11,638 nucleotides of DNA, taken from contig JAHQWH010000003.1 of the NCBI GenBank assembly GCA_029856105.1, positions 1 to 11,638 on the forward strand, given 5' to 3'. This document shows positions 6,520 to 11,136 of this stretch, piece by piece (the stretch's first letter is position 1; the number at the start of each line of letters is the position of its first letter). The DNA is from Promethearchaeia archaeon (GTDB taxonomy: Archaea > Asgardarchaeota > Lokiarchaeia > Sigyniarchaeales > SOKP01). The notes beneath the pieces are model-generated. The model made no database searches, was not told the DNA's origin, and was given only the letters and a program-made list of their open reading frames with translations. A program made the position numbers and the translations under genes.

Positions 6520-9500
6520 ATGGAAACAAGCTCAAGCGAAAAAATAAAAATTAAACTTGGTGGAATGACATGCGCTTCTTGTGCCCTCAAAATTGAAACT
6601 AAATTGAAAAATTTAGAGGGTGTTAGCGGTTCTGTTGTAAATTTTGCTAATGAAGAGGCTACTGTCGAATTCAACTCAAATAGGACTAGTTATGATGAAT
6701 TTCATAAAATAATTAAGGACTTGGGATACAAAGCAACCTTAGCAAAAATTGATATAAGAGTAGTAGAATCTCTTTCAGAGTCCGATTTCAACGATTTTGT
6801 CGATAATGTTAGGAGAATTGAAGGTATTTATGATGTCAGAGGAAATCTCAAGGCAAGCAAAATGTTTATCGAATTCAATGAACTACAACTTGACGAGAGT
6901 AAACTTTATTCAAAAATAAAACAATTAGGCTATAAAATCGAAAAAGCTGCAGGAGCAATAGATAAAGAAATCGAGAAACACAAAAAAGAAATGAAATATC
7001 GGTTGCGAATCTTGCTAATTGCCCTAGCGTTTGCTTTTATAATTACTCCTATTAGTTGGTTTGTAGCGGAATCTTTCACTAGAAATGTTATTCTTTTCTT
7101 TTTTGCGATAGCTGATTTTAGTATTGCGGGATCCTTCTTTCTTATAGGCGCGTATAAATCCTTAAGAAATAAATCTACCAATATGGATGTTTTAGTTGCT
7201 TTAGGAACTACAACTGCCTTAGTGTACTCAATTTTAACTACATTTCTTATTGAAGGGCATACTTTTTACGAAGCAATGAGTATGATTCTTGCTTTCCTTT
7301 TAATTGGAAAATATTTCGAACACAAAACTAAAGGTCAAACTTCAGAAGCAATCAAGAAACTTATCGGTTTACAACCAAAAACCGCTACTCTTTTAAAGGA
7401 TGGAATAGAAATTGAGATTCCCATTGAAGAGATAGAAGTAGGAGATATTTTAGTTGTTCGGCCTGGTGAAAAAATACCTCTTGACGGAAGAGTAGTGAAA
7501 GGAAAAACAAAAATAGATGAGTCTATGATTACTGGAGAAAGCAGATATGTGAAAAAGGAAATTGATAGCGAAGTAATAGGCGCAACGCTTAATCAAACTG
7601 GGCTGATAAATATTGTAGCCGAAAAAATAGGGAAAGATACTCTATTGTTTCAAATAATCAATTTCGTAAAGGAAGCCCAAAGTAAAAAAGCAGCAAAACA
7701 ACAATTAGCAGACAAAGTTAGCAATTATTTTGTCCCTGCGGTTATTATTATTGCCACTGGAGCGTTTCTCTACTGGTTTTTAATAGCAGGTATAGGATTA
7801 GAAATATCGCTACTAGTTTTTACATCCGTTGTTGTAATCTCATGCCCATGTGCTCTTGGTTTGGCAATACCTACCGCCGTTATGGTTGGTACTGGTAAAG
7901 GCGCTGAAAATGGAATTTTATTAAAGGGTGGTGATTCTTTAGAAGCGATTAGCAAGATTAATACAATTGTCTTTGATAAAACGGGGACTTTAACCGTAGG
8001 AAAACCAAAAGTCTCAGCAATATTTACCGAAAAAGACTTAAAGGGGAAAGGTTTCGATGTAGACGAGTTATTATATTTTGCAGGAAGCGCTGAAATGGGT
8101 TCGGAACACCTTCTTGGACAAGCGATTATCGAAGAAGCAAATCAAAAAGGGTTAACGCTCGAAGTTCCTACCGAATTCGATGCCATACTCGGGAAAGGTA
8201 TAAAAACCAACATTAAAAGCAAAAGCGTATTGATAGGAAATGAAAAATTAATGGAAGATAATAACATTTCTATCGGTTCGTATAAAGCTAAATTCATTGA
8301 ATTTCAAGAACAAGGAATAACAACGATATTAATTAGCGTTGAAGATGAGATCAAAGGAATTATCGGAATTTCTGACAAAATAAAAGATCAAGCGCCTTAC
8401 GCATTAGAAAAACTGAGAGAGAAGGGATTAGAAATTTTTATGCTTACTGGAGACAATAAGCAAACTGCCTTAAGCATAGGCGAACAGTTAAAATTCGACG
8501 ATCAGCATATTTTAGCGGAAGTTTTACCGAACGAAAAAGCTGAAACTATTAAGAAATTACAAGAATCAGAAGGAAATAAAGTTGTTGGCATGGTTGGAGA
8601 TGGAATAAACGACGCTCCTGCTTTAGCTCAAGCAGATGTCGGAATTGCGATAGGTTCAGGTACCGATATTGCTATGGAAACTGCAGATATAATACTCATG
8701 AGGGGAGACCTTCGGAATGTGGTTTCTGCTATTAACCTATCTAAAAAAACTTATCGCAAAATGATAACAAACTTGTTTTGGGCTTTTATATACAATATTA
8801 TTGGAATTCCTATAGCTGCGGGTGTTCTGTATTACGCAACCGGATTCTTTTTACCTCCCTATTTAGCTGCCTTTTTTATGGCATCTAGTTCAGTTTCAGT
8901 TGTTGGTAATGCGCTTTTATTGAAAAGATACGAACCAAAAACACCGCAGCAGATCGAAGAAGAAAGATTGTTAATCTCCCAAGAAAAGGTTGTAGACCCC
9001 GTTTGCGGTATGGAAATTGATCCAAGACGCGCTTTAGAACAAAAATATCAAGGAAAAACCTATCATTTTTGCGGTTCGAATTGTGAAGCTCACTTTAAAC
9101 AAGACCCTGAAAAGTTTAAGAATTACAATAACATGAACCCAAAATTAATGCAAATGAAAAGCAGCGAAGAAGATTTAGTAATTGATCCTGTTTGCGGAAT
9201 GAAGGGAAAACCCGAGGATTGGATTGAACACGAACACGATGGAGAGAAATATTATTTTTGTAACGAATCGTGTTTAGTTGAATTTAAGAAAGACCCTCAC
9301 AAGTATGTAAAACCTGAAAAAGAGAAGGAAATTAAAGAAATTGATACTATAAAAGAAAATAATGAGGTAGATAAAAAAATGGGAAATTTAAAATGTGCTG
9401 AATGTGGATTGGAGCAAGATTTACCTACTCATTGTGGTAAACCTATGCACAAAGAAGGCGAAGAGTTAGTTTGTTGGATGGGGGCGTCTTGTGGAGCTCA

Positions 9501-9546
9501 AAAAATCCCCGAACATCACGGTAAGCCAATGGAAATCATTAAATAA
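6520..9546 (+). CDS. copA: Cu(I)/Ag(I)-translocating P1B-1 ATPase with N-terminal HMA domains, two C-terminal YHS/TRASH-type domains and a Cys/His-rich terminal domain
   Basis: GMTCASC HMA, TGES, CPC, DKTGT, TGDN, GDGINDAP, and the transmembrane YN and MASSS motifs diagnostic of P1B-1. Tail has DPVCGM...YHFCGSNC and DPVCGM...YYFCNESC. Confidence 0.95.
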   Translation: METSSSEKIKIKLGGMTCASCALKIETKLKNLEGVSGSVVNFANEEATVEFNSNRTSYDEFHKIIKDLGYKATLAKIDIRVVESLSESDFNDFVDNVRRIEGIYDVRGNLKASKMFIEFNELQLDESKLYSKIKQLGYKIEKAAGAIDKEIEKHKKEMKYRLRILLIALAFAFIITPISWFVAESFTRNVILFFFAIADFSIAGSFFLIGAYKSLRNKSTNMDVLVALGTTTALVYSILTTFLIEGHTFYEAMSMILAFLLIGKYFEHKTKGQTSEAIKKLIGLQPKTATLLKDGIEIEIPIEEIEVGDILVVRPGEKIPLDGRVVKGKTKIDESMITGESRYVKKEIDSEVIGATLNQTGLINIVAEKIGKDTLLFQIINFVKEAQSKKAAKQQLADKVSNYFVPAVIIIATGAFLYWFLIAGIGLEISLLVFTSVVVISCPCALGLAIPTAVMVGTGKGAENGILLKGGDSLEAISKINTIVFDKTGTLTVGKPKVSAIFTEKDLKGKGFDVDELLYFAGSAEMGSEHLLGQAIIEEANQKGLTLEVPTEFDAILGKGIKTNIKSKSVLIGNEKLMEDNNISIGSYKAKFIEFQEQGITTILISVEDEIKGIIGISDKIKDQAPYALEKLREKGLEIFMLTGDNKQTALSIGEQLKFDDQHILAEVLPNEKAETIKKLQESEGNKVVGMVGDGINDAPALAQADVGIAIGSGTDIAMETADIILMRGDLRNVVSAINLSKKTYRKMITNLFWAFIYNIIGIPIAAGVLYYATGFFLPPYLAAFFMASSSVSVVGNALLLKRYEPKTPQQIEEERLLISQEKVVDPVCGMEIDPRRALEQKYQGKTYHFCGSNCEAHFKQDPEKFKNYNNMNPKLMQMKSSEEDLVIDPVCGMKGKPEDWIEHEHDGEKYYFCNESCLVEFKKDPHKYVKPEKEKEIKEIDTIKENNEVDKKMGNLKCAECGLEQDLPTHCGKPMHKEGEELVCWMGASCGAQKIPEHHGKPMEIIK

Positions 9547-9568
9547 AATAACCTGAAAAAAAAGTTGA

Positions 9569-9757
9569 ATGTATAAAATGGAAAACATGGAAATATACAA
9601 ATGTAGTGGATGTGGAAAAGTAATTGAAACGCTTCCTCAGTGTTGTGCCCAAGATATGGTTTTTAACGAAGAGAAAAACGAATTTGAGTGTTTTATGGGC
9701 GAAGACTGCGGATATGTAAGCCTATCTGAATTAAAATGCGACGATTGTTGTAAATAA
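9569..9757 (+). CDS. Small Cys-rich metal-binding protein with desulforedoxin-like N-terminal half; start may be 9578 or 9587
   Basis: 62 aa with 9 Cys: YKCSGCG...PQCCAQDM...ECFMGEDCG...KCDDCCK. Lies 22 nt after the copA stop on the same strand and aligns with the CopA C-terminal domain. Confidence 0.8.
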   Translation: MYKMENMEIYKCSGCGKVIETLPQCCAQDMVFNEEKNEFECFMGEDCGYVSLSELKCDDCCK

Positions 9758-9772
9758 TAAAATCCTTATAAA

Positions 9773-9780
9773 TTTTTTTT
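9773..9780 (+). terminator. T8 tract, candidate terminator of the copA-small protein unit
   Basis: TTTTTTTT 15 nt after the stop at 9757, in a convergent gap. Confidence 0.45.
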
Positions 9781-9789
9781 CTATTATAT

Positions 9790-9859
9790 TTAAATTACAT
9801 TGTTTTTTGAGGACACCTGTACTTAGTAAGTGTGTGGTTAAATTACATTGTTTTTTGAG
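9790..9859. repeat. Perfect 22-bp direct repeat (9790-9811 = 9838-9859) overlapping a second 26-bp repeat (9805-9830 ~ 9966-9991)
   Basis: TTAAATTACATTGTTTTTTGAG occurs twice; TTTTGAGGACACCTG(T/C)ACTTAGTAAG occurs twice with 1 mismatch. Confidence 0.95.
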
Positions 9860-11136
9860 CGAGCTTTTTTCTTAATAGACAATATAATTTCTAATGAAAT
9901 AAAAATTACCAAACCAAATAAGGTAATCAGCGCTCCTAAAAGAAATGCTGCTTGATACGCTAATGTTTTGAGGACACCTGCACTTAGTAAGGCATCTATC
10001 ATTGGTCCAGATATTAATGTACAAGCAAGACCCCATGACAGAAAAAATGTAGTGTTATAAACTCCGAATAATCTGGCTCTGATTTCTTCCGGAATTAAGT
10101 TAGAAGCAATTGCATAAGATGATGCATAAATAATAACTTCTCCTGTCCCTATTAAAAAGCTGCCTAAAAATATAATACTTAAATCAGTGGCAACTGCGGT
10201 AATGATTAATGCCGAAATTGCTATTAATGAACCTAAAATTAAAGTCCTTGAATGTCCCAGTTTTTTGCTTAAAAAAGCTGCTGAAAATCCAATTAATAGA
10301 ACAGAAATCGATCTAGTATTTGCTATCCAACTAATCATGATGCTATCTGCTGCAAATCCAGTTTCCAAATTAAGATATTGAGAATAGGGGACAGAAATAC
10401 TATTTCTTCCAAAATTAATGAGAAGTAAGGAAATAATGAATATAATAAAGATATTTTTATAAAATTCATTACCAGAATTATTTAATTCGTTATCTTTCTC
10501 ATTTATCTCAACCTGATGATGGATTCCTCCTTCAGATGTTAATAGCATAGGAAATGTGGAAATGAACATTACTAAGGCTGCAACAATAAATAGTGGACCC
10601 TCTCGAAAACCAAATCCATAATTATATAATATTCCTCCAATAGAAATTCCAAGAATTCGACCAATTCCACCAAGACCAGTTAATCTTCCCATAATTTTAC
10701 TTCTTTCGGAAGAAGGATATAAATCACTAATTAAAGCAGACCAAGCAATATTGCTCATGCTCCAAAAGATCTCTACTATCATTAATCCGATTATAATTAC
10801 ATAACCAGCAATATACAGATCTGATATTGCATAATGAACTAACCAAACCAATATTGTACCTATTCCAGCCAATATTTCTCCAAGTATAATCAAAGTCCTT
10901 CGTCTCTGCAATTTATCACTTAAAGGACCCCAAACGAAGTTTTGAAAGATTACACTCACTATCATTGGTAGAGTGGCATAAAGAGTTGTTTCAGTTATTG
11001 TTAAGTGTAAAAATGTTAAAAAATAAATTGATAAAAACGTGTAAAACAACCCCCTACGAAACATGGCTAACATTTGAAAGGATGATAGCCCAAGAAATGA
11101 TTTTGAAAAAAATGATTTAGATCTGACTTTATCCAC
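9838..11136 (-). CDS. Major facilitator superfamily transporter, substrate unknown
   Basis: 432 aa, about 12 hydrophobic segments in two halves; motif A GPLSDKLQRRR and its degenerate repeat AFLSKKLGHSR; SDLYPSSERSKIMG and IPEEIRARLFG loops. GTG start. Confidence 0.92.
   Translation of the reverse strand: MDKVRSKSFFSKSFLGLSSFQMLAMFRRGLFYTFLSIYFLTFLHLTITETTLYATLPMIVSVIFQNFVWGPLSDKLQRRRTLIILGEILAGIGTILVWLVHYAISDLYIAGYVIIIGLMIVEIFWSMSNIAWSALISDLYPSSERSKIMGRLTGLGGIGRILGISIGGILYNYGFGFREGPLFIVAALVMFISTFPMLLTSEGGIHHQVEINEKDNELNNSGNEFYKNIFIIFIISLLLINFGRNSISVPYSQYLNLETGFAADSIMISWIANTRSISVLLIGFSAAFLSKKLGHSRTLILGSLIAISALIITAVATDLSIIFLGSFLIGTGEVIIYASSYAIASNLIPEEIRARLFGVYNTTFFLSWGLACTLISGPMIDALLSAGVLKTLAYQAAFLLGALITLFGLVIFISLEIILSIKKKARSKNNVI

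Follow-up and report, generated by a model that had tools for sequence, protein, structure and literature searches.

The window analysed here is the entire 11.6-kb contig (11,638 nucleotides) of a 3.66-Mb Asgard (Loki-type) genome bin, and the subject of this work is a small cysteine- and histidine-containing module that forms the C-terminus of a copper pump, CopA, and recurs in a second form as the product of the following gene. The features of copA and of the small gene given below lie on the forward strand. The copA gene (6520–9546) encodes a 1008-residue Cu(I)-exporting ATPase of the P1B-1 type, as identified by NCBIfam TIGR01511 (598 bits, cut-off 397) and by Pfam matches to E1-E2_ATPase, Hydrolase, HMA and YHS. 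In the translation the membrane helices carry the motifs C-P-C, Y-N and M-x-x-S-S, which we take to be the Cu(I) signature. From its N-terminus CopA harbors a clear HMA domain, a second weak one, the ATPase core, two YHS/TRASH-type domains (PF04945; residues 824–868 and about 887–932, positions 8989–9123 and 9178–9315, 53 and 47 bits, respectively), a Lys/Glu-rich linker and finally the module in its histidine-containing form (His-type), which comprises the last 55 residues (954–1008; 9379–9543) and is itself a twin of unit 1 (9379–9459) and unit 2 (9460–9543). In a whole-genome search the HMA and YHS matches of this genome were all found inside this one CopA.

The small gene downstream of copA (9569–9757) encodes a cysteine-rich paralog of the tail (Cys-type) as a free protein of 62 residues, or of 56 residues if translation begins at the Met codon at 9587, which is the probable start since most homologues begin there. 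Depending on the start chosen, the open reading frame (ORF) begins 22–40 nt past the copA stop codon, 22 nt being the value for its full length. The positions of the tail and of the ORF are thus those assigned in the initial annotation of this DNA. Reading of the sequence reveals eight consecutive T past the small gene (9773–9780) but no such run between it and copA, and if oligo-T runs are taken as archaeal terminators, the two genes are probably co-transcribed.

The two forms of the module are homologous. A direct BLASTP comparison of the tail with the free ORF gives an E-value of 1e-6 with 36% identity over 44 residues, and a profile-profile comparison of a His-type alignment (28 tails and free copies) with a Cys-type alignment (26 sequences) gives 98.5%, an E-value of 3.4e-15 and a score of 68.6, as compared to 20.7 for the best of 100 column shuffles and 0.2% for the reversed profile. 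In an alignment-free protein atlas the Cys-type protein has, apart from the cluster to which it belongs, His-type clusters as its nearest neighbors. Within the tail, half 1 and half 2 are related to each other at 97% (E 7.6e-11, score 39.4, shuffle maximum 16.1), and judged by these profiles the CopA tail is a tandem duplication of a unit of about 26 residues. Both the module shared by tail and ORF and the two-fold repeat in the CopA copy, which the initial annotation had pointed out, are therefore borne out by controlled comparisons.

In the His-type alignment the residues C6, C9, P16, H18, C19, M23, C32, W33, M34, G35, C38, G39, P44, H46 and M51 are invariant, and position 47 is either H or C. 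As the halves of the tail are duplicates, each His-type unit offers two knuckle cysteines and an H-C or H-H pair, which is followed by G-K-x-M. The candidate ligand sets of the tail are consequently Cys3His in one unit and Cys2His2 or Cys3His in the other. In the Cys-type family, numbered from position 9587, C6, C9, G10, P17, C20, C35, C51 and C54 are invariant, while the residue preceding C20 and the cysteines of the second knuckle vary; the free protein of the window holds all of these cysteines and hence two potential Cys4 sets. Its cysteine-rich ending (C-x2-C-C), to which the initial annotation had drawn attention, is genuine and is kept as C-x2-C throughout the Cys-type family. Both forms keep the C-x2-C-G knuckle without exception.

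When CopA, its tail, the free ORF and each of the 54 aligned members were scanned against Pfam and NCBIfam, no family scored above its cut-off for the module, and neither profile found a PDB sequence under an E-value of 0.1. With regard to the other domains of the pump, neither the tail nor the free ORF matches HMA (PF00403), which has a ferredoxin-like fold and an M-x-C-x-x-C loop, and the predicted fold is all-beta; the YHS/TRASH matches in CopA (PF04945, PF08394) end at residue 932, none of them covering residues 954–1008 or the free ORF. Zinc ribbon families (Zn_Ribbon_1, Zn_ribbon_3 and others) appear as scattered sub-threshold matches in at most 7 of the 28 members, and the structure searches also list zinc ribbons at non-significant scores. 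No description of the module was found in the literature, and a survey of Asgard transporters treats copper ATPases in general terms only (PMC7997004). The earlier suggestion that the module is undescribed thus stands for Pfam, NCBIfam, the PDB and the papers searched.

The closest known relative is desulforedoxin (Dx). The free ORF scores 19.1 bits (17.1 bits from Met 9587) with Desulfoferrod_N (PF06397), which is under the cut-off of 23, and in the genome search it attains 23.8 bits only by summing neighboring pieces. The tail shows no match to this family, and at E ≤ 0.1 it is matched by 2 of the 26 aligned Cys-type sequences and by none of the 28 His-type ones. Genuine domains of Dx and desulfoferrodoxin (Dfx), which are common in Asgard genomes, score 44–78 bits, and for this reason the module, as far as its sequence can tell, is not a plain member of the Dx family. 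Profile-profile comparison with 22 genuine Asgard Dx domains, in turn, gives 94.7% (E 5.7e-8) for the Cys-type form with a deletion of 6 residues, 93.7% (E 1.8e-7) for unit 1 of the His-type form with a deletion of 7 residues, and 94.3% (E 1.1e-7) for the whole His-type form; none of 100 column shuffles equalled the real scores. The nearest named clusters of the protein atlas are likewise Dx-domain proteins (0.81–0.83). On the strength of these profiles both forms are distant, derived and shortened relatives of desulforedoxin with twin units, and the proposal of tandem Dx-like mini-domains in a His-rich fused and a Cys-rich free variant is upheld, the His-type form being mostly fused to CopA.

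The module and the Dx domain, which is also the N-terminal domain of Dfx (PF06397; 1cfw, 1dfx), share the N-terminal knuckle Y/L-K-C-x2-C-G and a subsequent [C/H]-C-G-x-x-M element, and the twin units of the module may recall the Dx homodimer. Differences are observed in three respects. Firstly, the spacing between the knuckle and the vicinal pair is 7–8 residues in the module as compared to about 15, including a beta hairpin, in Dx. Secondly, the vicinal pair is C-C in the free protein of the window, H-C in the tail and variable through the Cys-type family. Thirdly, the module contains two units per chain and is attached to a copper pump, whereas Dx is attached to a superoxide reductase domain. 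The domain of about 50 residues is accordingly composed of two shortened Dx-like units, each with a Cys knuckle and a P-x-[H/C]-C-G-x-x-M type element. As to the occurrence of Dx in this lineage, the small ORF is the sole Desulfoferrod_N signal of the present genome, a bin of 92% completeness; in 32 of 34 sampled genomes of the same family a match at E ≤ 0.01 is found, mostly far stronger and elsewhere in the genome.

The AlphaFold2 model of the tail is all-beta and two-fold symmetric with a predicted local distance difference test (pLDDT) score of 94.4, while the free form is modelled with lower confidence (pLDDT 84). Foldseek found no PDB match at E ≤ 0.001 for either model, the first-ranked entry being 1dfx at a weak E-value of 1.9. 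A VIA-align search of 48,161 chains gave a best Z-score of 3.2 for the tail, namely with desulforedoxin (1cfw_A, 33 of 36 residues, root-mean-square deviation 2.4), and of 2.4 for the free form, both too weak for a fold assignment. Weak as they are, the first ranks of both structure searches go to Dx or Dfx, in agreement with the profile comparisons. Three functions had been offered for the two domains, namely a copper chaperone/acceptor pair, a metallothionein-like store and a Cu(II) reductant. The first and the last are weighed below; the store is ranked least likely, and a metallothionein identity is rejected, because both forms are predicted as a defined small beta domain, compact and with regular strands, whereas a metallothionein is a cysteine-rich protein of low complexity that is built around metal-thiolate clusters and lacks a fixed fold in the apo state. 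No metallothionein family appeared among the Pfam results.

The coding sequence of the tail harbors a further element. The in-frame ATG at 9379, with which the module begins, is preceded at a distance of 10 nt by a Shine-Dalgarno-like GAGGT (9364–9368) within copA. Of the 67 distinct sequences found upstream of C-terminal modules, 66 carry an in-frame ATG (58) or GTG (8) 3–7 codons before the first cysteine, and 59 carry GGAGG, GAGGT, GAGGA or a close variant at −16 to −5, mostly with a spacing of 10–11 nt, although the tail loci are related and these counts overstate their independence. Elsewhere in these genes, only 36 of 1701 in-frame ATG/GTG codons (2.1%) are preceded by such a motif. The residues encoded at the motif change (E-V, E-D, E-E, K-E, Q-E) while GAGG is kept, which argues for selection at the nucleotide level; GAG accounts for only 19% of the Glu codons in these genes. 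Of seven first copies in doubled modules, six lack a start codon. Given the conserved Shine-Dalgarno-like motif and start codon, the tail may also be made as a free protein of 55 residues. GGTG-type motifs also stand before three genes of the window, namely copA, the gene for IscU and that for an LVIVD protein.

The latter gene (3777–6143, reverse strand) encodes a protein of 788 residues with 14 LVIVD repeats (530 bits). On the other side of the locus, past the small gene, an exact 22-nt direct repeat with a spacing of 48 nt is located at 9790–9859, and a 26-nt repeat (96%; 9805–9830 and 9966–9991) represents part of the 3′ end of a major facilitator superfamily transporter gene copied into the spacer. 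Together these repeats look like a small duplication scar.

Of 400 genomes of the phylum, 259 contain a match to the tail, and within the family to which the genome of the window belongs the figure is 122 of 134. The matching genomes of the order include some that consist of a single contig. More than 141 CopA clusters bear the module at their C-terminus, in some cases twice. It further occurs as a separate gene directly after a P1B ATPase (L044–L047), at the N-terminus of CopA ahead of the HMA domains (L043) and as the C-terminal tail of a CopA that begins with YHS (L042). At loci chosen by the tail alone, a Cys-type ORF lies less than 400 bp downstream on the same strand in 24 of 29 cases, and of 80 named Asgard loci 76 have the module fused, 8 in tandem, and 61 have a Cys-type gene directly downstream of the tailed copA. 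The supposed link to metal transport is therefore strong, resting on fusion at either end of P1B ATPases, on split genes alongside them and on the conserved pair of copA and small gene. When 185,579 species genomes were scanned with two strict peptide patterns, the best 80 matches were all labelled Asgard with the exception of one 1.9-kb contig labelled Bathyarchaeota; the module family has so far been seen almost only in Asgard archaea. Among the free His-type proteins, P0171–P0175 (86–88 residues) possess an N-terminal extension of about 30 residues. Regarding the usual partner of such pumps, no HMA gene of CopZ size was found in 61 genomes of family f1 with a completeness of 90% or more; their HMA matches without exception lie in frames of 255–1070 residues, i.e. 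in long ATPase frames.

Taken together, these observations are consistent with a metal-handling pair of the pump, in which a tethered tail serves as acceptor or sensor and a soluble homologous partner exchanges Cu(I) with it, a reading to which we assign a probability of roughly 0.5. The free protein would acquire metal in the cytosol, with Cu(I) as the most likely candidate, and a free copy of the tail from the internal start would possibly do likewise. Once loaded with metal, it would bind to its homologue at the end of CopA, the His-type form being placed as the last cytosolic domain of the pump after the two YHS domains, and would either hand its metal on to the pump or activate it. The pair is kept throughout this lineage and probably takes the place of the usual copper chaperone.

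Several observations weigh against such a metal-handling pair. The candidate ligand sets are at least as typical of structural zinc or of redox iron as of Cu(I), the small gene of the window is without a Shine-Dalgarno-like motif, and the counts given above were taken over related genomes and are not independent. Moreover, in family f31 (L033–L041, L050–L052) a free His-type gene, whose product ends in H-C, is positioned between the genes of an acyl-CoA dehydrogenase and a nitroreductase-family protein, often only 16–37 nt from the latter, and not beside a pump. In proteins of about 180 residues from related genomes (P0161; L076, L079, L080) an N-terminal Cys-type module is followed by an SCP2 (sterol carrier) domain (E 5.5e-8); no such fusion was found in the present genome. 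Because of these two contexts, namely the flavoenzyme setting and the SCP2 fusions, the module fold is not copper-specific; it is a general small metal module recruited by the pump lineage. The same contexts keep alive a structural role with zinc and a redox role with iron.

As a structural domain with two zinc ions the module would serve protein-protein contact only, the CopA tail being a regulatory or autoinhibitory element that pairs with the free paralog without any transfer of metal. The ligand sets are typical of zinc fingers, the scattered zinc-ribbon matches point in the same direction, and the SCP2 fusions demonstrate uses unrelated to copper; terminal domains of P1B ATPases have, in addition, been proposed to control autoinhibitory tails (PMC11970713). 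Nevertheless, fusions of the module to Cu(I) pumps have arisen several times independently, at the N- or the C-terminus, with a single or a doubled module and next to HMA or YHS domains, and no CopZ-type chaperone was found in the genomes of the lineage that were searched. Both are explained more simply by a role in metal handling, and we consider a purely structural role rather unlikely.

As a redox centre the module would, like desulforedoxin, bind iron through Cys4 or Cys3His and serve as an electron carrier; on CopA and in the free paralog it would either reduce Cu(II) to the transported Cu(I), as the initial annotation had suggested, or report the redox state to the pump. Such a function is in line with the relation to Dx, whose set of C-x2-C and vicinal C-C is present in the free protein of the window together with the second Cys4 set. 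At four of the f31 loci (L035, L039, L051, L052) the His-type gene, following that of the acyl-CoA dehydrogenase, lies 16–37 nt before a co-directional gene for a nitroreductase-family flavoprotein, and the only archaeal cupric reductase described, CopZ of A. fulgidus, is fused to an iron-sulfur domain (PMC7558416, citing Sazinsky 2007). On the other hand, the first cysteine of the vicinal pair is replaced by His in the tail and varies between C, H, S, Q, N and Y in the Cys-type family, the hairpin between the ligand pairs is 6–7 residues shorter than in Dx, related genomes carry genuine Dx and Dfx genes separately, and the orientation of the nitroreductase gene is not always co-directional, being convergent in some of the f31 genera. 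We therefore regard a redox centre as an unlikely account of the module.

That the resemblance is a chance match of cysteine-rich strings, or that the small ORF is not a gene, is practically out of the question, for although both stretches are short and rich in cysteine and single-sequence searches yield weak family matches only, the real profile scores are 3–4 times the best of 100 column shuffles, the ORF is kept down to about 40% identity with six invariant cysteines, and its position after copA is maintained through several genera.

Coming back to the metal-handling pair, a more elaborate version combines it with the candidate internal start. The copA gene would then have two products, the tailed pump and a free twin Dx-like protein, which together with the all-Cys paralog would constitute a chaperone system in place of CopZ. 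This version is put forward tentatively and is on balance doubtful.

To our knowledge, the cytosolic metal-binding domains of copper pumps are almost always HMA, His-rich or YHS/TRASH domains. Here, an archaeal lineage employs a different, unnamed pump domain, which is fused, doubled, split off or present as a paralogous partner gene, and it does so among the Asgard archaea, the closest known relatives of eukaryotes. The module is built on known kinds, namely metal sites of the rubredoxin/Dx type and the accessory metal domains of P1B ATPases; new in this analysis are the shuffle-controlled relation to Dx and the statistics on the internal start. If the module binds and passes on Cu(I), chaperones and acceptors of copper have a new fold; if its metal is iron, a cupric reductase is built into the pump. 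Either outcome would add a domain family to the databases and explain what hundreds of small proteins annotated as "hypothetical" do. The conserved candidate ribosome-binding site within copA, in turn, offers a testable case of one archaeal gene giving rise to a membrane pump and its soluble partner.

Among known copper systems, non-HMA metal domains are found in several arrangements. According to PMC7558416, the N-terminal Zn/[2Fe-2S] domain of Archaeoglobus fulgidus CopZ is credited with Cu(II) reduction. Like the present module it is an archaeal, cysteine-rich, non-HMA metal domain fused to copper-export machinery; unlike the module it is larger, holds a cluster and is fused to the chaperone instead of the pump, and our searches returned no match to it in sequence or fold. 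The N-terminal domain of Legionella pneumophila CopA possesses a rubredoxin-type C-P-x-C-G knuckle with a trigonal sulfur site and has been proposed as a sensor (PMC11970713). It is thus also a knuckle-type, non-HMA domain on a Cu(I) pump, yet it contains a single knuckle and a disordered His-rich tail, is located at the N-terminus and gave no profile match in the PDB sequence searches. In Streptococcus pneumoniae, CupA and the cupredoxin-like N-terminal domain of its CopA form a donor/acceptor pair that shares one fold (PMC7558416). The parallel lies in a non-HMA chaperone and a pump domain of common fold; the S. pneumoniae pair is, however, bacterial and of cupredoxin fold, its chaperone is membrane-anchored, and it has no sequence relation to the module.

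In its overall layout the system proposed here resembles the pair formed by the CopZ/HMA chaperone and the HMA domains of CopA, in that a small soluble protein shares its ancestry with a cytosolic domain tethered to the pump that it would serve, while the fold and ligands of the module are unrelated, as indicated by the lack of any HMA match. A closer parallel with regard to gene organization is provided by E. coli CopA(Z), for which chaperone and pump are reported to originate from one gene (Meydan 2017, as cited in PMC7558416). There, the small protein arises by frameshifting near the 5′ end, whereas the candidate internal start of the present copA is located near the 3′ end. In both cases the small protein would be encoded beside or within copA, and if the internal start is used, the two would be independent parallel solutions.

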